Shown here one piece after another: positions 1-11,836 of a DNA stretch of 12,458 bases. The DNA is from a virus. Taxonomy: Duplodnaviria > Heunggongvirae > Uroviricota > Caudoviricetes. Below the pieces are notes generated by a model, which was not told the DNA's origin, did no database searches, and was given only the letters and a program-made list of their open reading frames with translations. Every line of letters starts with the position of its first letter. The stretch's first letter is position 1. A program made the translations under genes and the position numbers. Location of the stretch: the IMG/VR virus record IMGVR_UViG_2645727562_000019. The stretch is one strand, 5' to 3'.

Positions 1-1257
1 GTGCTTACCGATACAAAATTAAAAAACCTCAAGCCGCAGGACAAACTGTACAAGGTCTCCGATCGTGACGGGCTGTATGTAGCTGTGCTTACGTCAGGCA
101 CGGTCTCGTTTCGCTATGACTACCGTATCAACGGTCGCCGCGAAACACTGGTAATCGGGCAGTATGGGCGTGACGGTATCAGCCTGGCAGAAGCGCGGGA
201 AGAACTGATTGCTGCAAAGAAGCTGCTTAAAGCAGGCCAGTCGCCGGCTGCGGCTAAACGTGACGGTATCAAAAAGATTCGTGGTGCCGAGACGTTTGCG
301 GTACATACCGACAGTTATATGAAACACGTCATCCTGGCTGACAGTACCCGCGCAATGAAGCAGGCGGTGATCGACCGTGACATACTTCCGGTTCTTGGCA
401 ACAAAATGATGGCTGAAATTACCACATCGATGGTTCGTGATTTGTGTGACCGGATTGTCGAACGCGGTGGCCGTGCAACAGCAGTACAGTCCAGGGAGAT
501 CATCAGCAGCGTATACCGTCACGCCAATGACCGTGGTCATGGTTTGTTTAATCCTGCGGCTGACATTAAACCTTCGTCTATCGCCATATTTAAACCACGA
601 GAGCGAACACTGACACCAGAAGAAATTGGCCTGTTCTTCCGTACGCTGGATGCCATTGGTGCTATGGGCACTATGAAAATGGCTTTAAAGCTGGTGCTTA
701 TCACTATGGTTCGTAAAGGCGAGTTCACCAATGCAACGTGGGATGAAATAGATTTTAAAAAATGGACATGGACAATTCCTTCAGACCGCATGAAGGGAAG
801 CCGGGCGCACGTTATTTACCTGCCTAAACAGGCACAGGATATATTGGTCGGGTTGCAGATGTGCGCTGGTGGAAGTGAATATCTGGTTCCTGGTCGTTAC
901 AATTTCCGGAAGCCATTATCTAATGCCGCGCTGAACTCTCTGATCGACAGAACGGTGAAAATAATAAATGAAGATGGTGAGCATATTCAGGACTTCACTG
1001 TACATGATATGCGCCGTACAGCCAGTACGTTGTTGCATGAGGCTGGTTATCCTTCAGACTGGATTGAAAAGTCTCTGGCACATGAGCAGAAAGGTGTGCG
1101 CGCCGTATATAACAAAGCGGAATACGCCAGACAGCGCGCCTACATGTTGCAGCAGTGGGCCGATATGATTGATTCCTGGATTGACGGGGAGCATACGGAT
1201 CTGATTCCGTTCTCCCCGTCGAAGTTTGAGAGGTGGATGGAAGACAGTAATAAATAA
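1..1257 (+). CDS. int: Tyrosine site-specific integrase (P4-type phage integrase family)
   Basis: 418-aa ORF with N-terminal LTDTK...LYKVSD arm-binding-like region, box II HDMRRTASTLL (HxxR) and C-terminal VRAVYNKAEY tyrosine region. GTG at window position 1, so the true start may sit at or just upstream of the edge. Stop TAA at 1255-1257. Confidence 0.85.
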   Translation: MLTDTKLKNLKPQDKLYKVSDRDGLYVAVLTSGTVSFRYDYRINGRRETLVIGQYGRDGISLAEAREELIAAKKLLKAGQSPAAAKRDGIKKIRGAETFAVHTDSYMKHVILADSTRAMKQAVIDRDILPVLGNKMMAEITTSMVRDLCDRIVERGGRATAVQSREIISSVYRHANDRGHGLFNPAADIKPSSIAIFKPRERTLTPEEIGLFFRTLDAIGAMGTMKMALKLVLITMVRKGEFTNATWDEIDFKKWTWTIPSDRMKGSRAHVIYLPKQAQDILVGLQMCAGGSEYLVPGRYNFRKPLSNAALNSLIDRTVKIINEDGEHIQDFTVHDMRRTASTLLHEAGYPSDWIEKSLAHEQKGVRAVYNKAEYARQRAYMLQQWADMIDSWIDGEHTDLIPFSPSKFERWMEDSNK

Positions 1258-1259
1258 TT

Positions 1260-1919
1260 CTATCCTTCCTGGACTTTGGTAAGCGTCAGATTTCCGCAGA
1301 ACACTGCGCCGGTGTCGATGTACATTTGGTTTGCATACACCAGTGGGTGATGTGCTGGCGTATGACCGAAGATGAACAAATCGGCACCGGTTATCTCCGA
1401 GACAATACCGTCCTGCGCGTCGCTAACCCGCTCACGATTCCATATCACCATTTCTTCCGGTACTGGCTTATCGAATGCGTATTCGTTGTGCGGGTAGTCT
1501 GCGTGGCAGATGACGACCTTCTTATTGCCGGTAACCAGTTCGATAATCATCGGGAGGTTGGTAACCTTTGGCAGAAGGTATTTGAGTTGCACATCCTGCT
1601 CAGAATCAAGTTGGTGCCACCATCCACCGCCGTTTGACATCCAATGTCCGAAACTTCCGCCGTTGACCAGTGCATCCAGCATCATCTGCTCATGGTTGCC
1701 ACGAACAGCTCGGAACCACGGAATAGTAATCAAATCCAGGCATTCGACGTTTTCAGCGCCGCGGTCAACAAGGTCACCAACGGAAATAAGCAAATCGCGC
1801 GCCGGGTCGAATGAAACTTTGTCGAGTTCGTTCATCAGCAGCGTGTAGCACCCATGCAGATCGCCGACGACGAAGATATTGCACCAGTCAGCGCCATTGA
1901 TGCGTTGATATAGGTTCAT
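1260..1919 (-). CDS. Serine/threonine protein phosphatase, lambda PPase-like metallophosphoesterase
   Basis: Near-colinear resemblance to lambda phosphatase as recalled: [46 protein letters not shown]. Start taken at ATG 1919 (MNLYQRI...) with GGGAG 8 nt upstream; the track ORF extends further 5-prime to 2039 but that would overlap the upstream gene. ATGA overlap with the upstream methyltransferase. Confidence 0.9.
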
Positions 1920-2566
1920 GCTGCACGCTCCCGCCCCTGGTTGTCTGTTGGTGACAGCGGAGCATTGCTGAATGCATTTGTTAATCCGCCAATATCCAAC
2001 GCGTATCCAGGATGTAGTTGCACTGCCGGGTCTTCGCACTGATTACCCCAAACATCGAAACCATGAGACGACTGGCGGGCGAACAGTTCAATGCGAGAAA
2101 CATCGCCTAACAATTGCACAAGTTTTTCACGAACGACATCTGGTTTTCTTGAATGCTCAAGCCGCGGTGCGGTAAATGACTGAACGATCCCTGCATTAAT
2201 GCGTGGAGGTAGTTTTCCCTTTACTGCAAACAGGCAATCTTCACTATTGGCGCGAGTCATGTGTCCCATACCCATAACCAGTTTATCTGGTTGTCGACTA
2301 CCACATTTTATCCACGTGAAGCCCTTCATGGTCATCAGACGGAATCCCCAGGCTTCAACAACTTTTAGTGCTTCGAGTGGTTGTGTTGGCACCCACCACA
2401 TGGCCAACAGACAGTTTTCATCGGCCAAATCCCACACAGGAAGGCGGCAAATATCCAGCACACTCATAACCGGATATTTAAAACCGGCACCGCGATTACC
2501 ATCCGCGGCTTTGTCCCGGTATACCCAGGGTGGATCTGCATAGATTAGTGTGTATTTCTTAGTCAT
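1916..2566 (-). CDS. MT-A70-family N6-adenine DNA methyltransferase, apparently orphan (no restriction partner nearby)
   Basis: IYADPPW(V)Y motif near the N-terminus, typical of the MT-A70 / phage Dam-like family. Start taken at ATG 2566 ([14 protein letters not shown]). Stop TGA 1916-1918 overlaps the phosphatase ATG (ATGA). Confidence 0.8.
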
Positions 2567-2858
2567 AAACCACCCCACAACATCCTATGCCGCTATAGTC
2601 GCCACGGCGAAGGCCGTTACCTTTTGTGATACATTGGTCCCTGCGAACCGCGATCCTTGCACGCTCAACATCACCAGAAGCAACATCCATACACTGAAGC
2701 CAAAGGTGGGCGGCAATGCGGAACTGCCCTTTTTTCTCTCTTTCAATCGCGCGTTTTTCGATCTCTATCGCCGCAGGAGTAACGGCAACAACCTTTGAAT
2801 GGCTGCGCATTGAAACCTTGTTCATGTGATATTTTTCAAGTCGGCTTAACTTTCTCAC
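2559..2858 (-). CDS. Hypothetical protein (99 aa), no recognised domain
   Basis: ORF overlapping the methyltransferase start by 8 nt. GTG at 2858 is preceded by GAGAGGG 9 nt upstream; alternative ATG at 2825 has no SD. Start uncertain. Confidence 0.4.
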   Translation of the reverse strand: MRKLSRLEKYHMNKVSMRSHSKVVAVTPAAIEIEKRAIEREKKGQFRIAAHLWLQCMDVASGDVERARIAVRRDQCITKGNGLRRGDYSGIGCCGVVYD

Positions 2859-2967
2859 TTAATCCAACCCTCTCTGAAAATTAATGCCAGCAGATAAAGC
2901 CATGCTGAAACAGAGGCCAGGAATAAGTACCATCCTGACCATTTGCTCCAGTGCCTTAGCAGCACAC

Positions 2968-3216
2968 TCATGCCGCGTTGCTCACAGGACGATATACTCG
3001 TTGCTGAACAGGAGGTTTTTTACCCTGGAACTCTGCCGGGCTTGCTGCCTGACGTTCATCAAGCCAACGCTCAACTTCATCACGGTTCCATGCGCAGCGT
3101 TTGTCAGTGATATACCAGCGTTTAGGAAATTCCCCTGCGCGCTCCATACGGTCGATAGTGCTCCATGACAGTGGCACCACCGCCAGGAGTTCCTTCTTAC
3201 CTAATGCACCTTTCAT
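2968..3216 (-). CDS. AlpA/Xis-like small DNA-binding protein (excisionase or prophage regulatory protein family)
   Basis: 82 aa; segment LLAVVPLSWSTIDRMERAGEFPKRWYITDKRCAWNRDEVERWLDER fits the AlpA/excisionase winged-helix pattern (L..V.....ST......G.FP.........W...EV..WL). SD-like GAGAGG lies upstream. Confidence 0.75.
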   Translation of the reverse strand: MKGALGKKELLAVVPLSWSTIDRMERAGEFPKRWYITDKRCAWNRDEVERWLDERQAASPAEFQGKKPPVQQRVYRPVSNAA

Positions 3217-3265
3217 AAATACCTCTCTTGGTTGCAGTGCGGCGCGCGTGGCGCCGCGGTGGTGG

Positions 3266-4147
3266 TTACATAGATGTTTCGTTTAATTCTTCCCGACGAA
3301 CGCTGTAAACGTCGGTGGCTTTTGCCAGCAGTTCGTCATCATCTGAAAGTTTTTGTGCAATGTATTTGTAAGCCTTATCCAGTTCGGAGACAGTGCTGTA
3401 ATTCATCGCTGCGCTGGTAAAGGCCATCAGCATTTCTTCTGGATCACGGCTATCCGCTTTACGCGTTTGCTCATCATGCTTTTTCGCTGGTTTAGCGTTG
3501 ATCAGACTGTTCATTCCCGCAGCAGTAGTCGTTTGTGGAGTAATGTCTCGCTCAACGCGCGGTGCCGTTTCCTGTAATTCGTCAGGGGTGTAAACACCGA
3601 GAAGCACATCAGGAGCGTGCAGGCGAGCCCATCGTTTCGTGCAAAGATAGGCAAGCTGCTGGCGCGGATCCTGTTCCCACAATGGAGAGTTACGCACTCC
3701 GGCTTGCGCCATACTGATGGTAAGCTCACGGGGTTCTGCTTCTCCTTTAAGAACTGCTGACACAGTTACCGTCAGATTCGGTGATTTATCTGTTTTGCCG
3801 TTAACATTCGACCAGTCACCGCTCCAGCGATAATTCAGGCGTGTCGCCAGCAGGCTGGAAGAGGATACGACCGCGTTTACCAACTGTGCTTCGTAGCCTA
3901 ACGTTCCGTTTACCACATGCGTTTTCTGCGCCACGGCGAAAGGGTTCATTCCCCACTGTGCCGCCTGCATGGTCACCGCCAGGCAATCGGCAGGTTTGCC
4001 TTCAAGATGTTTCGGTACAGTCACTTTGCTTTGTGACATCAAATCCGCGAAACGCACCAGTTGATTCATGCCCTCGGGGCTGAAGATTGCCGCAGCAGTG
4101 CCTACAGTTGCGCCTGGTTGTGATGTGATTGCGATATCATTGCTCAT
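3266..4147 (-). CDS. RecT/Bet-family single-strand annealing recombinase
   Basis: 293 aa; C-terminal region NSPLWEQDPRQQLAYLCTKRWARLHAPDVLLGVYTPDE...ERDITP parallels lambda Bet (WQSHPKRMLRHKAMIQCARLAFGFAGIYDKDE...ERDITP, from memory). AGGA SD upstream; ATG 4147 overlaps the exonuclease stop (ATGA). Confidence 0.8.
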   Translation of the reverse strand: MSNDIAITSQPGATVGTAAAIFSPEGMNQLVRFADLMSQSKVTVPKHLEGKPADCLAVTMQAAQWGMNPFAVAQKTHVVNGTLGYEAQLVNAVVSSSSLLATRLNYRWSGDWSNVNGKTDKSPNLTVTVSAVLKGEAEPRELTISMAQAGVRNSPLWEQDPRQQLAYLCTKRWARLHAPDVLLGVYTPDELQETAPRVERDITPQTTTAAGMNSLINAKPAKKHDEQTRKADSRDPEEMLMAFTSAAMNYSTVSELDKAYKYIAQKLSDDDELLAKATDVYSVRREELNETSM

Positions 4148-4965
4148 ACGTACATATCCTGTTTACGTGCCCAGTCAGGGCGTTTAATAATTTCCACTCC
4201 GCCCCATTCATCGTTGATGCGGCATTCGTGATAGGTATTCAGATCCCGGCGGAACAGAGCGTGCCCGGCATCGACATCCGGCGCATCCAGCTCGAACACG
4301 CGTACCGGATACCGACCACAATCAATGCTTTCGCTCACGGCAAGAAAGAAAAAACCATGTGGCTGACCAGTAACCCTCATTGCGCCTTCGCGGTACATTG
4401 CGTCCTGCACGTGGTAGCGGAACTCCTCGATGTGGCGTGCAAAACGGTCCATATCTGCAACCTTTTTCACGTCGACGATCACGTTGTGCTCGTTCAGCCA
4501 TTTGTCTGGACGAATTCGGCACAACTCACCCGTATCTTCATCGTTCCAGTACATTGATGCTTCGCAGTAACCAGGTGCTTCCAACATCCAGCGTGCCGCC
4601 GGGTGAGCCATTGCGCTATCACGCATCAGCTCCAGTTTTCGCCACTGCTCTGCATCAAGTACCGAAATCCCCATATCCGCTACATCACGAATAAATGCCT
4701 CTTCGTCAGCTTTACCTTGTTTTGTCCGACGATCGAATTTCGGTGAAACGATGAAGCGTTTGTCAAACTCTCCAGGTTCCAGAAGCAGACAGTGCAGAGC
4801 AGTACCCATGTCCAGTTCAGACTTCTTCTCTTCGTCTTCCGGAGCAGCCTTCACCCATTTCAGAAGGGCAGGGTTCTTAGCCACCATATCTAGCTGCGAC
4901 TTACTCACGCCGTCACCGGCGTGGTAGTCCTCGTTGCTGATATCGAAATAAATTCCCGGATTCAT
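4144..4965 (-). CDS. RecE-like PD-(D/E)XK exonuclease (exodeoxyribonuclease VIII-like domain family)
   Basis: 273 aa; N-terminus IYFDISNEDYHAGDGVSKSQL is typical of the prophage exonuclease VIII-like family, with a D...VDVKK PD-(D/E)XK-like motif. Sits immediately upstream of RecT. AGAGGG SD 7 nt before ATG 4965; ATGA overlaps on both sides. Confidence 0.75.
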   Translation of the reverse strand: MNPGIYFDISNEDYHAGDGVSKSQLDMVAKNPALLKWVKAAPEDEEKKSELDMGTALHCLLLEPGEFDKRFIVSPKFDRRTKQGKADEEAFIRDVADMGISVLDAEQWRKLELMRDSAMAHPAARWMLEAPGYCEASMYWNDEDTGELCRIRPDKWLNEHNVIVDVKKVADMDRFARHIEEFRYHVQDAMYREGAMRVTGQPHGFFFLAVSESIDCGRYPVRVFELDAPDVDAGHALFRRDLNTYHECRINDEWGGVEIIKRPDWARKQDMYV

Positions 4966-5261
4966 GCCGCGTCCCTCTGCCCATCAATCTGATCAGCCAG
5001 ATCCCAGCGGGCGATAATTGCCATTGCCTCGCGCCGGTAGGCATCCATTAGTTCTTCGAACTCTGGACTGTCTTTAGCGGCCTCCAGTACTTCCTGGCGA
5101 ACGCCTTTACCTGTTACAACGTCGAAAGTTGAGGCCAGTTGATGAAGCCGGATGGTCTCAATCAGTTCAACTTGTCGGTCATATAGCTGTTCTGACAGGC
5201 GGTAGTCCTTGTCGAATGCCAGCATGATTTTTTGAAGATTTTTCTGCTGATTAACGTTCAT
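4962..5261 (-). CDS. Hypothetical protein (99 aa)
   Basis: ORF in the operon; start taken at ATG 5261 preceded by GAGGTGG (the track ORF begins at GTG 5267). Stop overlaps the exonuclease ATG (ATGA). Confidence 0.55.
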   Translation of the reverse strand: MNVNQQKNLQKIMLAFDKDYRLSEQLYDRQVELIETIRLHQLASTFDVVTGKGVRQEVLEAAKDSPEFEELMDAYRREAMAIIARWDLADQIDGQRDAA

Positions 5262-5268
5262 ACCCACC

Positions 5269-6303
5269 TCAATATTTGATATACGCGTCCTGCACTTTGC
5301 CGCCAGCGATAGCCAACATTGCTTTCTGCGCGAATTCTTCGGGAATGCCTTGGGCTATCAGATCTGCGATTACTCTGCGGTTAACGGTACGGCGATGCTC
5401 TTTATCCGCAGCTCGGCGCGCTTCTTCGTCGGCGATACGCTTCTGTTCTTCAATGCGGGCTTTTTCTGCCTCCTCTTGGCGTCGGCGTTCCTCGGCAACG
5501 GCTTCTTCTTTTTCGCGTCGTGCACGCTGCTCTGCTTCAATTCGCTGACGTTCTGCTACTTCAGCACGTGCTTTCTCTTCCGCCGCCAGGCGTGCCGCAG
5601 CATCAATTTCAGCTTTCGCTTTTTGTTCAGCTTCGAGCCTGGCCTGTTCAGCAGCTTCCCGGCGGATATTCTCTTCTCGCTCAATGCGCGCTTTTTCCTC
5701 CGCTTCTTTGCGAAGTCTCTCCAGCTCAGCGGCTTCATGCTCGCGTTTTTGAGCTACTGCGAGTGATTCTTCCAGTTTCTGGATGGTTGAATCCTTGGCT
5801 ACTCCAGCTTCTGCTGCGTACTCCTGCCAACTCTCATCAAGTGCTACTGATTTAGCCTCTTGAATTCGTTCCTGAATATCAGTTGATGGCAAGTAGTTTC
5901 CGGAGAGATCGATCACGTCAGCCAGTGCTCGCAAATTTGTCAGGCGTTGTTGCAGTGCTTCAGTGCGTAATTTCTCAGCATTTTCCCACTCGGTGAGTGG
6001 GCGGCGTACTTCATCACGAAGCCGATCGCATTCGGTTACGAGGCGTCGTAACTCTGCTTCAACTACTTTCGGCTGTTCTTTCAGGCGTTTCAGATAATCA
6101 CGTCCTGGTTTTTCTACCGCTGTTTTACTTCTTGAAACCTTCGCAGCCAGAGATGCAATGCGCTTTCTGCCTTTGTCTGTGCTAATGTCAGGCACTTCAT
6201 TAACACCTTCACGGATCTGCTCGAGAAACTTTTCCAGTCCTTTTTCAACGTAAATTCTTGGTGCCATATCTGGTGTGATTTCGATGATTGATAATTCACT
6301 CAT
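5269..6303 (-). CDS. Coiled-coil protein with an E/A/R/K-rich low-complexity segment, function unknown
   Basis: 344-aa ORF with a strong GGGAGGAGG SD before ATG 6303. The central ~120 aa are repetitive (EAEEKARIERE..., AEQKAKAEIDAAARLAAEEKARAEVAERQRIEAEQRARREKEEA). Coding potential is supported by operon context and the ATGA overlap with the upstream small ORF. Confidence 0.7.
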   Translation of the reverse strand: MSELSIIEITPDMAPRIYVEKGLEKFLEQIREGVNEVPDISTDKGRKRIASLAAKVSRSKTAVEKPGRDYLKRLKEQPKVVEAELRRLVTECDRLRDEVRRPLTEWENAEKLRTEALQQRLTNLRALADVIDLSGNYLPSTDIQERIQEAKSVALDESWQEYAAEAGVAKDSTIQKLEESLAVAQKREHEAAELERLRKEAEEKARIEREENIRREAAEQARLEAEQKAKAEIDAAARLAAEEKARAEVAERQRIEAEQRARREKEEAVAEERRRQEEAEKARIEEQKRIADEEARRAADKEHRRTVNRRVIADLIAQGIPEEFAQKAMLAIAGGKVQDAYIKY

Positions 6304-6614: not shown

Positions 6615-7199
6615 TTATTGTTTGTTTTTTTCGTTCTGGTTGATGACAAATTCAATGTAACTTTCGATCTTTGCTTTCTCGGTTTCGGGTAACAAAGCGT
6701 AGCGCGAGCGGTCATAGTTGATAGTCGCAGGGTCGTGCGGGTGAATCAGTAATTCATAGCCGTGACGCCCGAATGCGGATGCAACATTCTCCAGGGTGGA
6801 AATGGAAACGCTGACCTCATTGTTTAACAGGCGGCTGATTGTCACCTGGGCGACGCCGGATGCGCGGTGAAGTTTTCCCTGCGTTGAAAGGTCGCGGCTT
6901 TCGCTCATCCAGCGTTCCAGGTTGTGAGCCGCCAGCTGACCAATGTCGCTTGGTCCGACAGGCTGAAAACCTTCCTGAGAAAGCGAGCGATCGATATCAA
7001 GCCAGTTACGGGGTTTATTGGCGGCAGCTTCAATTTTTCGCGCAACCTGGTCGCCGATAACCTTCTTGCCAAGAGCCCAGCGGTTTACCAGATTTGCCTG
7101 AGTTCCAAGTTTTTCTGCCATCCGCGTCTGAACACCATTGAATTCACGGTCGATCAAGTCGTTGAGATTTTGCCTACGGACGTCCTGGATACTTTTCAT
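6615..7199 (-). CDS. Prophage repressor candidate (CI-like role): two XRE-type HTH domains, no recognisable S24 peptidase/autocleavage domain
   Basis: 194 aa. N-terminal HTH-like segment VQTRMAEKLGTQANLVNRWALGKK and a second HTH-like segment LSTQGKLHRASGVAQVTISRLLNNEVSVSISTLENVASAF. Divergent from the Cro-like gene with an operator cluster between them; no obvious SD before ATG 7199. Confidence 0.65.
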   Translation of the reverse strand: MKSIQDVRRQNLNDLIDREFNGVQTRMAEKLGTQANLVNRWALGKKVIGDQVARKIEAAANKPRNWLDIDRSLSQEGFQPVGPSDIGQLAAHNLERWMSESRDLSTQGKLHRASGVAQVTISRLLNNEVSVSISTLENVASAFGRHGYELLIHPHDPATINYDRSRYALLPETEKAKIESYIEFVINQNEKNKQ

Positions 7200-9689: not shown

Positions 9690-10043
9690 ATGAGAAAACA
9701 GATACAGGCTCTTGGTCGACTCAAAACAGGCCAGATGAACAAAACAGAATCTGCGTATTGCCAGCACCTTGAGCAGCGTAAACGTGCAGGGGAAATCGCC
9801 TGGTATCGATTCGAGGGTATCAAGCTGCGGTTAGCTGATAACTGCTTCCTGACTGTAGATTTTGCCGTGATGTTGGCTGACGGGCAGTTGGTGATGGTGG
9901 ACGTTAAGGGAAGTAAGTCAGTCTTTACTGACGATGCGAGAGTCAAGATGAAGGTTGCGGCAGACAGCTATCCGTTTGTCTTTCAGGTTGCTTATCCAAA
10001 ACCTAAAAAGCTCGGTGGTGGATGGGAGGTTGAGGAACTATGA
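9690..10043 (+). CDS. DUF1064-family protein (PD-(D/E)XK nuclease-like fold)
   Basis: 117 aa; pattern ESAYCQHLEQRKRAGEI...FEGIKLRL...VDFAVMLADGQLVMVDVKG...KMK fits the phage DUF1064 family signature as recalled (...AGEI...F.L...Y.ADF...VEDVKG...). Stop overlaps the next ATG (ATGA). Confidence 0.6.
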   Translation: MRKQIQALGRLKTGQMNKTESAYCQHLEQRKRAGEIAWYRFEGIKLRLADNCFLTVDFAVMLADGQLVMVDVKGSKSVFTDDARVKMKVAADSYPFVFQVAYPKPKKLGGGWEVEEL

Positions 10044-10648
10044 GCGAGAAGCCCAATGCTGCGGGATTGATTGTATCCGGTGATAAAAACCCGAATTGGA
10101 AGGGTGGGAAAATCGAAAAGGTTTGCTCCGTATGTGGCAGGCAATATCAGGTTAAGCGAGCCAACTCCTCTTCAAGGTTCTGCTCACTTCAGTGTGTAGG
10201 AATTTCACAGCGAGGCAAGACGGTAAATCGGGAACTAAAGCGAGTATTAAAAATATGCTGCGTATGCGGATCTTCGTTCTCCGTTTTCTTGAGTCATGAG
10301 AAGCGTCATAAATGCTGCTCGAAACAGTGTTCCAACATAATGCGTTCTTCTCTGATGAAGGGGGAAGGAAATCCAAACTGGTCTGGTGGATTATCGAGAT
10401 TGCCGTATCCGTGGGATTTCCGAGAAACGAGCAAGAGGGTTATTGAGCGAGATGGTTTTACTTGTCAGAACCCAGGTTGTGATGGAACAGACAAAAGGCT
10501 AACAACTCATCATATCAATTACGACAAGCAAGACTGTCGTCAGGAGAACCTTATTTGTCTTTGTTCGAGCTGTAACTCGAAGGCTAATTTCGGTCGGCAT
10601 AAGTGGCAAAAGTTTTATGAATCACTGATGAAAAATAGATCGGCATGA
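10040..10648 (+). CDS. HNH endonuclease with duplicated N-terminal Cys-rich modules
   Basis: 202 aa. C-terminal HNH core CQNPGCDGTDKRLTTHHINYDKQDCRQENLICLCSSCNSKAN. NPNWKGG (aa ~17) and NPNWSGG (aa ~111) motifs, with two Cys-rich segments between them: CSVCGRQYQVKRANSSSRFCSLQC and CCVCGSSFSVFLSHEKRHKCCSKQC. Confidence 0.8.
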   Translation: MSEKPNAAGLIVSGDKNPNWKGGKIEKVCSVCGRQYQVKRANSSSRFCSLQCVGISQRGKTVNRELKRVLKICCVCGSSFSVFLSHEKRHKCCSKQCSNIMRSSLMKGEGNPNWSGGLSRLPYPWDFRETSKRVIERDGFTCQNPGCDGTDKRLTTHHINYDKQDCRQENLICLCSSCNSKANFGRHKWQKFYESLMKNRSA

Positions 10649-10709: not shown

Positions 10710-11366
10710 ATGGAAAGTAATATCAAAGGGTTAGTTACCGCCGGGCATGAGATGGCTTCGGAACTGAAAGCAGAATGTGGCGCCGTTGATATGCGTAGTG
10801 TGGCAAAGCTGATCAGCGATTTGGCAACGCAACTGGAAGTGCAACTGGAAGTGCAACTGGTGCGTGCTAATGCGCTGGCCGAAGACCAACAGAAAGCGAT
10901 TGAGTCAATTAAGCAGGCTGATTCGGCTGTTAAGTTGGCACACGAGAAGTTTTCGGCGCTGGCGGCGGAGAATGCGGTAATGCTCGAAACTATTGAAGCC
11001 GTTCGCAGTGTTGCGGATAACTCCAGTGGAATTGCCGGATGGCATTTGAATGGCGATATCGCCACATGGGAAGAGATTCTTCCTGAAATTAACGATATCG
11101 AAACCCCAGCCACCGATGCTTTTCTGGCTGAAGGGAAGACTGAAGCACGCAAGGAAGGCGCTTATTTTGTGGCGAACAGAATGTTGGCAGCTTGGAAAGC
11201 TGGTTTTATTGATGATACTGCGAAGAACGCCGCGGATATTGCCCGGATGATCCTTACCTCTACTGAGTTTATGGCTAATGCGCCGGAAGGCGATTTTGAT
11301 CGCTCATTCTCTGATGGCGTTCTCGAAGATATCGCCGAACAGCTTCGTAAAGGAGTCATCCAATGA
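10710..11366 (+). CDS. Hypothetical protein (218 aa), acidic, with a short QLEV tandem repeat
   Basis: ORF with GAGGG SD about 10 nt upstream. No domain recognised by eye. Stop overlaps the next ATG (ATGA). Confidence 0.55.
   Translation: MESNIKGLVTAGHEMASELKAECGAVDMRSVAKLISDLATQLEVQLEVQLVRANALAEDQQKAIESIKQADSAVKLAHEKFSALAAENAVMLETIEAVRSVADNSSGIAGWHLNGDIATWEEILPEINDIETPATDAFLAEGKTEARKEGAYFVANRMLAAWKAGFIDDTAKNAADIARMILTSTEFMANAPEGDFDRSFSDGVLEDIAEQLRKGVIQ
10830..10862 (+). repeat. 12-bp tandem repeat CAACTGGAAGTG, about 2.7 copies, in frame within the 218-aa ORF
   Basis: gcaactggaagtgcaactggaagtgcaactggtg encodes QLEVQLEVQLV. Confidence 0.8.
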
Positions 11367-11836
11367 GCAAGATTGATTATCAAAAGCTTCGTGAAATCGC
11401 TGAAAAAACAAAAATTGCTGGTGAAGCACCTGTAATGCCTTTCGATCAGCGAATTAATGCGCTTAACGATTTTATGAAGCACTTTTCGCCAGATATCGCG
11501 CTGGCATTGTTGGATGAATGGGAAAGAAACCAGCAATACATCAAACGCCGCGATCAGGAGAACGAGGATATTGCGCTAACGGTAGGGAAGCTGCGCGTTG
11601 AGCTTGAAGCAGCAAAATCAAAACTCAACGAGCAGCGTGAATATTACGAGGGAGTAATCGCGGATGGAAGTAAGCGCATAGCAGAACTGGAGGAGCGGGA
11701 AATACTGCTCCCGGAACGTAGCAGCATGCTTCATCGAACAGATTTTCACGAGGATTACCAAACGGTAATGGCATACAAAGTTTCTGAAGTCATCGATGCA
11801 ATCCGCGCTACTGGCATTCGCATCAAAGGAGAGTGA
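11363..11836 (+). CDS. Hypothetical coiled-coil protein (157 aa)
   Basis: ORF coupled by ATGA to the upstream gene. Coiled-coil-like segment LRVELEAAKSKLNEQREYYEGVIADGSKRIAELEERE. Function unknown. Confidence 0.5.
   Translation: MSKIDYQKLREIAEKTKIAGEAPVMPFDQRINALNDFMKHFSPDIALALLDEWERNQQYIKRRDQENEDIALTVGKLRVELEAAKSKLNEQREYYEGVIADGSKRIAELEEREILLPERSSMLHRTDFHEDYQTVMAYKVSEVIDAIRATGIRIKGE

Follow-up and report, generated by a model that had tools for sequence, protein, structure and literature searches.

Three accessory genes, one of them exchangeable cargo, at the integrase-proximal end of a phiV10-like prophage

Lambdoid phages normally carry a Ser/Thr phosphatase gene in the nin region. Phage lambda can do without this gene, ninI, and its function there is poorly understood (PMC10695390, PMC3224144). 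M.EcoPA8orf6770P, an adenine methyltransferase of phage PA8, was reported to methylate 16S rRNA when combined with its partner PNB-2; on its own the enzyme was nearly inactive on DNA and on RNA, and the partner is needed (PMC10810198). The C-terminal tail of this STEC-type methyltransferase has been suggested to be relevant for holoenzyme formation (PMC10810198). The same paper describes M.EcoGV as highly similar to M.EcoPA8orf6770P and as methylating GATC in DNA when overexpressed (PMC10810198), and an entry in another source lists M.EcoGV as GATC-specific on DNA (PMC6602927).

Relatives of both enzymes are encoded by adjacent genes in the stretch of viral DNA analysed here (12,458 nucleotides, referred to as the window), preceded by a small third gene.

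Three catalogued genes of a Uetakevirus prophage

Uetakevirus members phiv142-3, PAS61, phiV10 and ZX5 were collinear with the window, with 60-79% coverage at 96-98% nucleotide identity, and a 99.9% identical prophage copy adjoins guaA in E. coli NADC1036. Judged by its sequence, the window derives from a podovirus prophage of the genus Uetakevirus (phiV10/epsilon15-like). The original prediction had compared the locus with lambda; a lambda-type genome is contradicted by nucleotide homology and by the taxonomy lines. The following features are referred to below:

1..1257, plus strand: tyrosine integrase (Pfam Arm-DNA-bind_3, Phage_integrase, Phage_int_M; RefSeq WP_257117223.1, next to guaA)
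1243..1913, no strand assigned: swappable cargo cassette, comprising all of the phosphatase ORF except the start codon and an alternative int 3' end (phiV10/PA8 alignment, slot census)
1260..1919, minus strand: NinI/lambda-phosphatase-type binuclear metallophosphoesterase, 219 aa (1G5B match, Pfam Metallophos, PHROG 246)
1916..1919, minus strand: ATGA stop/start overlap of methyltransferase and phosphatase, the fixed slot junction (reads TCAT on the plus strand)
1928..1932, minus strand: GGGAG, Shine-Dalgarno-like element located 8 nt before the ATG of the cargo, within the 3' end of the methyltransferase gene
1916..2566, minus strand: MT-A70-family N6-adenine methyltransferase, 216 aa, orphan (Pfam MT-A70; RefSeq WP_000163455.1; ATG at 2566)
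2525..2536, minus strand: codons of the DPPW catalytic motif, residues 11-14 (from the translation; invariant in a six-sequence alignment)
2559..2566, minus strand: overlap of PerC stop and methyltransferase start, 8 nt, ATGACTAA (kept in 75 of 79 related loci)
2559..2858, minus strand: small regulator of the PerC family, 99 aa with the GTG start or 89 aa with the ATG at 2828 (Pfam PerC; RefSeq WP_001228928.1)
2968..3216, minus strand: AlpA-family (excisionase-like) HTH gene, next upstream of PerC (Pfam Phage_AlpA, 24.2 bits, cut-off 21)

The phosphatase aligned end to end (residues 1-217) with lambda phosphatase 1G5B at 67% identity (E=7e-100), and it matched Pfam Metallophos (57.7 bits, cut-off 21.5) and the 'NinI-like' family PHROG 246 (E=3e-107). 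The motifs GDxHG, GDxxDRG and GNHE and the downstream His ligands are conserved, and all ten active-site residues that were checked are kept (D20, H22, D49, D52, R53, N75, H76, H139, R162 and H186). An assignment to chromosomal PrpA/PrpB was rejected, with scores of 265.4 bits for NCBIfam NF008516 (cut-off 326) and 220.9 bits for NF007425 (cut-off 332); being below these equivalog cut-offs, the protein is classified as a phage NinI-type paralogue. The methyltransferase matched Pfam MT-A70 over the whole model (positions 1-172 of 172; 78.6 bits, cut-off 23.9), and in PADLOC it hit generic Type II methyltransferase models only (MTase_II, 255.9 bits). The 99-aa ORF scored above the cut-off of Pfam PerC (PF06069; 30.4 bits, cut-off 22.6, residues 25-70) and matched PHROG 868, 'transcriptional activator' (E=3e-55); its score for NCBIfam ANR_neg_reg was below cut-off (23.9 bits), and PADLOC returned no match for it. 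The profile search thus agreed with the lambda-phosphatase-like and MT-A70 families named in the original prediction, the former also by the 1G5B alignment and the latter by its full-length Pfam match, while the third protein, described there as unknown, is a member of the PerC family.

All three genes are already named in RefSeq, with CDS boundaries identical to those in the window. Of 5426 complete E. coli genomes, 142 have the full trio and a further 635 contain part of it. Related copies of the phosphatase gene in IMG/VR loci were intact without exception (25 of 25), and pN/pS among related alleles was 0.28 for the phosphatase, 0.17 for the methyltransferase and 0.18 for PerC. Hence all three genes are under purifying selection, and the RefSeq match, the intact phosphatase copies and the low pN/pS values identify them as real genes and not chance ORFs. 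They are ordinary, already catalogued accessory genes, and the phiV10-like prophage to which they belong is common in E. coli; their public annotation is correct, and the practical value of the present assignments is modest.

The trio occupies the far end of a tightly packed, partly overlapping leftward gene string of early type (repressor, PD-(D/E)XK nuclease, RecT, AlpA, PerC, methyltransferase, phosphatase), with which the integrase gene is convergent. Crude consensus scans of positions 1000-3400 did not reveal promoter-like sites on either strand or terminator-like sites on the coding (minus) strand. The sole terminator-like match in this region was located on the non-coding strand and was below chance expectation. 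These data are in line with the predicted location at the distal end of an early-left operon. The parallel drawn with the b region of lambda does not apply, as the genes lie between the AlpA/Xis-like gene and the convergent integrase, inside the prophage. Following infection or induction, the trio would be transcribed leftward along with the genes for recombination.

The interval between methyltransferase and integrase is a cargo slot

Homology of the window with phiV10 and PA8 breaks at approximately position 1243 and resumes at position 1914. A census of the slot covered 80 IMG/VR loci, 79 with an intact and one with a disrupted methyltransferase gene. The 79 near-identical loci with intact methyltransferase contained a DUF1382 gene (49 loci), the phosphatase (25 loci) or an 82-aa ORF with an AntA-like gene after it (five loci), and the junction GCATGAA was identical ahead of DUF1382, phosphatase and 82-aa cargos. 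The last five codons of the integrase gene (...WMEDSNK) come with the phosphatase cassette, and in each of 23 loci the C-terminal variant of the integrase went with the type of cargo. The interval between methyltransferase and integrase is a cargo slot with at least three alternative occupants, among them the phosphatase. The PerC-family gene and the MT-A70 methyltransferase gene, by comparison, are near-constant in this phage group.

A match to the phosphatase cassette with at least 95% identity was found in 146 records; among the matches listed, 40 of 40 were located beside this integrase or contained the phosphatase alone. Of about 565 E. coli genomes in which this methyltransferase region is present, approximately 142 have the phosphatase, and only about a quarter to a third of the prophages with this methyltransferase also carry it. 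In other species, the Uetakevirus-like prophages that were found all lacked it. The lambda-type phosphatase is thus a natural present-or-absent cargo in near-identical prophages, which provides ready-made isogenic comparisons.

The original prediction had taken the ATGA overlap at 1916-1919 as a sign of coupling between phosphatase and methyltransferase. The overlap itself was seen in the sequence, as was the predicted overlap of the 99-aa ORF with the methyltransferase start (8 nt, 2559-2566). Since all cargos begin at this very ATGA, however, the overlap at 1916-1919 is a property of the slot and not of the phosphatase-methyltransferase pair. The GGGAG element, which is likewise common to the three alternative cargos, falls in a stretch common to the window and phiV10, and whichever cargo is in the slot would begin translation at the inherited ATGA overlap with its Shine-Dalgarno element. 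RNA structures that might mask ribosome-binding sites and thereby impose coupling were not detected beyond shuffled controls at either junction (z=0.35 at the phosphatase junction, z=-0.20 at the PerC/methyltransferase junction). A start/stop overlap of two accessory genes marks, in this case, a recombination-friendly slot and not a functional partnership. Taken together, the trio is probably best explained as three separate accessory genes on the integrase side of the leftward early gene string, with the phosphatase being slot cargo that is independent of the methyltransferase.

Substrate and possible partners of the methyltransferase

The genes close to the methyltransferase encode the PerC-family protein, phosphatase, integrase and AlpA, and a restriction endonuclease gene is not among them. 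The predicted 'orphan' status was thereby borne out, and the enzyme does not form part of a type II restriction-modification system. Through its DPPW site it would transfer a methyl group from SAM to the N6 position of adenine. Its conserved core (residues 1-187) is 83% identical to that of M.EcoPA8orf6770P, while the C-terminal tail differs between lineages: after residue 187 it is unrelated to the C-terminal 27-29 or so residues of STEC-type enzymes, and the methyltransferases of E15 and SPC32N lack the tail. Only chance matches were obtained when the whole window was searched for PNB-2 and PNB-1 homologues by tblastn.

The substrate of the enzyme is uncertain because the GATC report for M.EcoGV stands against the rRNA report for M.EcoPA8orf6770P, which requires PNB-2. 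By analogy with M.EcoGV, we give about even chances to a Dam-like enzyme that targets GATC in DNA. Methylation of rRNA or other RNA appears rather improbable, at somewhat less than one chance in five, and the probability left by these two readings falls to another or a relaxed DNA specificity. The window shows neither avoidance nor enrichment of GATC (46 sites observed, 48.6 expected), so that site frequency gives no clue to the specificity, and GATC methylation by the phage enzyme would duplicate that of host Dam. As the closest studied homologue is nearly inactive alone and its partner is absent here, the enzyme may be weak, may need a partner or may act on RNA. The anti-restriction role suggested in the original prediction is possible, but the targets of the studied homologues (GATC, 16S rRNA) point to no new protective motif. 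The paper describing ZX5 does not discuss the methyltransferase. Given the conflicting substrates reported for this subfamily (GATC in DNA or, with PNB-2, 16S rRNA), the PNB-2-less Uetakevirus form represents a natural test case.

One specific form of the RNA reading is that the enzyme methylates 16S rRNA and thereby tunes spontaneous prophage induction, like M.EcoPA8orf6770P with PNB-2. The high identity of the catalytic cores, which includes the variable loop at residues 86-99, speaks for this view, as do the rRNA preference, the DPPW-dependent effects on induction and the weak DNA activity reported for the PA8 enzyme (PMC10810198), and the METTL3/14 RNA methylases also belong to the MT-A70 family. 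We nevertheless regard it as unlikely: the window encodes no homologue of the specificity subunit PNB-2, the C-terminal 29 residues are unrelated to those suggested for holoenzyme formation, and the catalytic subunit alone is nearly inactive also on RNA (PMC10810198). Furthermore, among proteins of solved structure the closest in sequence are methyltransferases that form 6mA in DNA (MTA1), and M.EcoGV is given as GATC-specific on DNA in the entry cited above (PMC6602927). The missing subunit might be replaced by the PerC-family protein, so that PerC and methyltransferase would form the real two-gene unit. MT-A70 enzymes often need partners (PMC10810198), the two genes overlap by 8 nt and are adjacent in 75 of the 79 near-identical loci, and both are kept across Uetakevirus-like prophages of several genera. 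We consider this replacement very unlikely, however, as the PerC-family protein has no similarity to PNB-2, its family is annotated as transcriptional activators, and the two genes are separated in a number of relatives: Tyrion has a DUF1317 gene and a gene for a 75-aa winged-helix protein between them, SPC32N and Citrobacter werkmanii have DUF1317 and DndB genes in this position, and in L019, L020 and L084 a DndB-like ORF is directly upstream of the methyltransferase. Nor does the methyltransferase tail co-vary with the upstream neighbour; such a correlation was rejected because window, phiV10 and Tyrion have the same tail despite the winged-helix ORF upstream in Tyrion. The 75-aa winged-helix protein of Tyrion has no detectable similarity to PNB-2.

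Roles of the phosphatase and comparison with known systems

By analogy with the in vitro activity of lambda phosphatase, the protein would act as a Mn2+-dependent phosphoesterase on phosphoproteins of host or phage, presumably in an accessory role that is dispensable and does not depend on the methyltransferase. The paper describing PAS61 nowhere mentions the phosphatase. The original prediction, by contrast, had speculatively paired the two genes in function, with the methyltransferase countering restriction and the phosphatase countering kinase-based host signalling or defence. Such a co-adapted, coupled pair would be compatible with the ATGA overlap and its Shine-Dalgarno element, with the location of both genes in one early-type gene string and with the orphan status of the methyltransferase; conflicts between phage and host over phosphorylation are real, as exemplified by the T7 kinase (PMC13645617). 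An independent co-localisation is found in an Ewingella lambdoid prophage, where a methyltransferase of the same family follows NinB and a NinI-like phosphatase is encoded approximately 860 bp downstream, but this arrangement is nothing other than a nin region, and three small ORFs separate the two genes. The junction is shared with the DUF1382 and 82-aa cargos, the phosphatase is present in only a minority of the near-identical IMG/VR loci and of the E. coli genomes with the methyltransferase region, and it is missing from the related prophages of other species. In addition, the phosphatase family occurs in 1450 phage records, most of which lack this methyltransferase, and PADLOC did not return a match for the phosphatase. 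The functional pairing was therefore not sustained, and we consider it highly improbable.

Slightly less remote, though still improbable, is a main activity on nucleic-acid or nucleotide substrates, with healing of RNA 2',3'-cyclic phosphate ends after cleavage by a host ribonuclease, or breakdown of signalling nucleotides or dinucleoside polyphosphates, as candidates. In vitro, lambda phosphatase cleaves bis-pNPP as well as nucleoside 2',3'-cyclic phosphates, and the Pnkp phosphatase domain has its prototype in this enzyme (PMC2190708); the window protein has partial NCBIfam matches to ApaH, PrpE and bacterial Pnkp as well as a PHROG cross-match to an 'RNA ligase' family. The ApaH, PrpE and Pnkp matches, however, span only the common metallophosphoesterase motifs and are far below the cut-offs, and the window does not contain a kinase or ligase partner gene. 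More speculatively, and with little probability, the slot might be a hot-spot of conflict genes, in which the phosphatase gains an advantage by erasing phosphorylation by competitor or host kinases and the PNB-2-less MT-A70 enzyme modifies both RNA and DNA. Examples of such kinases would be those of T7-like phages that superinfect the cell, or toxin kinases of the HipA type, and either the lysogen or the induced phage would benefit. If true, the phosphatase part would provide a first biological role for the lambda-phosphatase family, and the RNA part would extend phage rRNA methylation beyond Stx phages. Independent accessory genes, with the phosphatase as slot cargo, remain the preferred explanation.

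The closest known systems compare as follows. The phosphatase has the same length, fold family and PHROG family as lambda Ser/Thr phosphatase (NinI/orf221; 1G5B), whereas the nearest lambdoid ninI genes (phi80, HK225) are only about 79% identical to it in DNA sequence. The ciliate DNA 6mA methyltransferase MTA1 (AMT1) is the best solved relative of the methyltransferase by sequence (E ~4e-13), followed by METTL3 (~4e-6). Both share the MT-A70 core and a DPPW-type site with the window enzyme, but they are eukaryotic multi-subunit enzymes, while the phage protein is a bare core of 216 aa with no partner identified. The Stx2a-prophage enzymes M.EcoPA8orf6770P (PA8 gp5)/M.EcoGV have in common with it the DPPW motif and a place in the leftward early region close to its integrase end; the PA8 system includes PNB-2 and PNB-1, in contrast to the window, which contains neither and has the PerC-family gene as upstream neighbour. 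The PerC/Pch activators of virulence genes (PF06069), to which the ANR family is related, match the 99-aa ORF over about 46 residues only. The window ORF is a conserved phage gene and not one of a virulence plasmid, and its product is a putative regulator by family, with neither LEE nor any other target implied. Phages vB_EcoP_PAS61 and BP9 have an identical trio (98% DNA identity), labelled phosphatase, methyltransferase and hypothetical protein. In phiV10, finally, gp32-gp34 are a DUF1382 protein, a DNA methyltransferase and a PerC-like activator; the PerC-like gene, the methyltransferase gene and the junction are common to phiV10 and the window, but in phiV10, as in PA8 and most phiV10 relatives, the methyltransferase is followed by the DUF1382 gene, and in the window by the phosphatase.

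Gene layout at the integrase end of the window

The ORF list and the sequence place the phosphatase, methyltransferase and PerC-family ORFs back to back on the minus strand, at the end of a gene string that meets a convergent integrase gene:

6615-7199, minus: HTH repressor
between HTH repressor and PD-(D/E)XK nuclease, minus: unknown genes
4144-4965, minus: PD-(D/E)XK nuclease
3266-4147, minus: RecT
2968-3216, minus: AlpA-like gene, followed in order by the next three
2559-2858, minus: PerC-family ORF, 99 aa from GTG
1916-2566, minus: methyltransferase ORF, 216 aa from ATG at 2566
1260-1919, minus: phosphatase ORF, 219 aa from ATG at 1919
1-1257, plus: integrase

The coordinates and the ATGA overlap of the original prediction were right: phosphatase and methyltransferase share positions 1916-1919 (TCAT on the plus strand, ATGA on the coding strand). 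The phosphatase ATG has a GGGAG element 8 nt upstream of it, and the PerC-family ORF ends 8 nt inside the methyltransferase ORF (ATGACTAA). Simple consensus scans of 1000-3400 found neither promoter-like sites on either strand nor terminator-like sites on the minus strand, which fits a single long leftward transcription unit. The stop codons of integrase and phosphatase are separated by 2 bp only (1255-1262). Given this spacing and the lack of a terminator-like element, leftward early transcripts should continue into int in antisense, and those of int into the neighbouring cargo gene; such read-through could exert antisense control on the integrase.

The closest matches of the window were the Uetakevirus podoviruses phiv142-3, PAS61, phiV10 and ZX5 (96-98% identity), and not a lambda-type genome. 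These best phage matches span no more than 57-79% of the window, so the early region is a strong mosaic. In the recombination module (3266-6303), RecT (3266-4147) and the PD-(D/E)XK nuclease (4144-4965) are encoded by separate genes, whereas a RecE/RecT fusion is annotated in phiV10; the module also contains 101-aa and 344-aa ORFs without Pfam match. Among the rightward accessory genes (10040-10648, 11363-11836) are a 202-aa ORF whose matches to zf-HIT and HNH_3 are weak and sub-threshold, and a gene for an Ead/Ea22-like protein that scores 100 bits in Pfam. A 99.9% identical region is present twice in E. coli NADC1036, once in the chromosome and once in its own 38.7-kb replicon record, the size of a phage genome (records NZ_CP076267.1, 38,709 bp, and NZ_CP076264.1). 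The separate record points to assembly of an excised circular phage genome and thus suggests that the prophage is active.

A cargo slot between methyltransferase and integrase

Among isolated phages, the three-gene set was found in PAS61 and BP9 only; phiV10 and about 15 other phages match over only 60% of 1200-2900. Where the window has the phosphatase, phiV10 has a 64-aa DUF1382 gene. Alignment with phiV10 placed the breakpoints at ~1243, within the last int codons, and at 1913/1914, directly before the shared TTCATGCTGCACG, which contains the start codon and Shine-Dalgarno element. The content of this slot (its "cargo") was determined at 80 IMG/VR loci with a methyltransferase at least 98% identical; there are at least 599 matches, of which these are the 80 best, and proportions are therefore approximate.

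Slot content at the census loci (the 80 best IMG/VR matches)
DUF1382: 49 loci
phosphatase: 25 loci
82-aa ORF, then AntA-like gene: 5 loci
methyltransferase disrupted: 1 locus

At the 80 best-matching loci, every cargo starts at the same GCATGAA junction. The phosphatase went with an integrase ending in ...WMEDSNK at 23/23 census loci, and the other cargos with an integrase ending in ...WMAGE or close variants. The third cargo (L012, an IMG/VR locus, 3648-4871; also L013, L018, L023 and L025) consists of an 82-aa ORF without Pfam match, starting from the same ATGA junction, and a 216-aa AntA/AntB antirepressor-like gene, ~1 kb before int.

The whole set was present in 142 of 5426 complete E. 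coli genomes and part of it in 635 of 5426; about 70 of the matching records, those at 60-80% identity, probably reflect distant ninI genes. The phosphatase cassette was matched at ≥95% identity in 146 records, and each of the 40 listed among these 146 has it next to this integrase, or the phosphatase alone. Of 28 loci from other species, 8-10 had a Uetakevirus-like arrangement, none of them with the phosphatase. The sole other co-occurrence in these 28 loci was in a lambdoid prophage of Ewingella sp. (L102, 2549-5773), where the methyltransferase directly follows NinB and a NinI-like phosphatase is located ~860 bp further, before NinG. This is an ordinary nin region, so members of both gene families travel as accessory genes of the nin type.

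Slot census, E. coli genomes and other-species loci together show that the ATGA overlap is a property of the slot and that phosphatase and methyltransferase assort independently. In the slot, the phosphatase is one of several interchangeable cargos, and the functional pairing originally proposed for the two proteins is not supported.

Substrates of the two enzymes and neighbours of the methyltransferase

Profile searches assigned the phosphatase to the lambda type and the methyltransferase to MT-A70, as expected. The alignment of the phosphatase with lambda phosphatase (PDB 1G5B) runs from one end to the other (E=7e-100, 67% identity), and 10/10 active-site residues checked are kept. The protein also matches Pfam Metallophos and PHROG 246 'NinI-like serine-threonine phosphatase'; its scores for the chromosomal phosphatases PrpA and PrpB stay under the NCBIfam equivalog cut-offs, and it had no match in PADLOC. 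By homology it is a predicted Mn2+-dependent phosphoesterase. Lambda ninI is not needed for plaque formation and is poorly understood (PMC10695390, PMC3224144). Since phosphodiesters and nucleoside 2',3'-cyclic phosphates are also cleaved by the lambda enzyme in vitro (PMC2190708), the substrate may, by analogy, be a nucleic acid or nucleotide; T7 kinase biology (PMC13645617) makes it conceivable that the phosphatase acts in kinase-based conflict.

The methyltransferase matches the entire Pfam MT-A70 model (78.6 bits), and carries DPPW as residues 11-14; among solved structures, ciliate MTA1 DNA 6mA methyltransferase chains are its best relatives, then METTL3. It is an orphan, as predicted, because none of its neighbours encodes an endonuclease. 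In its core it shares 83% identity with M.EcoPA8orf6770P of Stx2a phage PA8, an enzyme reported to have almost no activity on DNA or RNA by itself (PMC10810198). With PNB-2, encoded upstream, the PA8 enzyme forms a 1:1 complex that prefers 16S rRNA and 30S subunits, and its DPPW motif is required for its effect on spontaneous induction and virulence (PMC10810198). Action on RNA is a live alternative for the window's enzyme. On the other side, passages in PMC10810198 and PMC6602927 describe GATC methylation in DNA by overexpressed M.EcoGV, which is highly similar to M.EcoPA8orf6770P, and REBASE listings of relatives as GATC enzymes. Because the window encodes no homologue of PNB-2 or PNB-1 and the C-terminal tail differs from that of the PA8 enzyme, we prefer, with moderate confidence, DNA N6-adenine as the predicted target, most likely in a Dam-like GATC context. 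The GATC frequency of the window was uninformative on specificity. In a Dam+ host, a Dam-like enzyme would add no new protective motif but could keep rapidly replicating phage DNA fully methylated. In one IMG/VR relative (L069, 3001-3219) the methyltransferase ends after 72 residues at a premature stop (TGG for W73 to TAG).

The 99-aa ORF, initially described as unknown, scores above the gathering threshold of Pfam PerC and has a match to PHROG 868 'transcriptional activator' (E=3e-55). It directly precedes the methyltransferase with an 8-nt overlap at 75/79 near-identical loci (from the 80 best IMG/VR matches), as might be expected if both proteins formed a holoenzyme. This is unlikely, however, given the genes that intervene elsewhere: DUF1317 and 75-aa winged-helix (HTH_24) genes in Enterobacter phage Tyrion (L004, 1408-1811), DUF1317 and DndB in SPC32N and Citrobacter werkmanii, and a DndB-like ORF in IMG/VR loci L019, L020 and L084 (1880-3001). 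Moreover, the window, phiV10 and Tyrion share a C-terminal methyltransferase tail (residues 188-216) that E15 and SPC32N lack and that differs in PA8, a distribution independent of the upstream neighbour. Like PNB-2 in PA8, the Tyrion winged-helix gene lies immediately next to the methyltransferase; sequence similarity between the two proteins was not detectable (E=0.05). The DndB-family (DGQHR-motif) proteins, 355-373 aa, are encoded directly 5' of the methyltransferase with a stop/start overlap in L019, L020 and L084 and in relatives L006 (737-1804) and L095 (1937-3004). This position is a second variable slot, on the side of the methyltransferase opposite to the cargo.

Comparison with existing annotation

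Exactly the same three CDS are annotated in RefSeq for E. coli NADC1036, where they adjoin a tyrosine integrase in a prophage beside guaA: 'serine/threonine protein phosphatase' (WP_001055436.1), 'MT-A70 family methyltransferase' (WP_000163455.1) and 'PerC family transcriptional regulator' (WP_001228928.1). In allele comparisons, pN/pS was 0.17-0.28 across the three genes. The PAS61 paper is silent on the phosphatase and the ZX5 paper on the methyltransferase. All parts are members of known families, RefSeq names these very proteins appropriately, and two isolated phages have the same arrangement. Our analysis adds only two points to these known systems: the precise cargo slot with its breakpoints, and the placement of the methyltransferase as a member without PNB-2 of a subfamily whose substrate is disputed.
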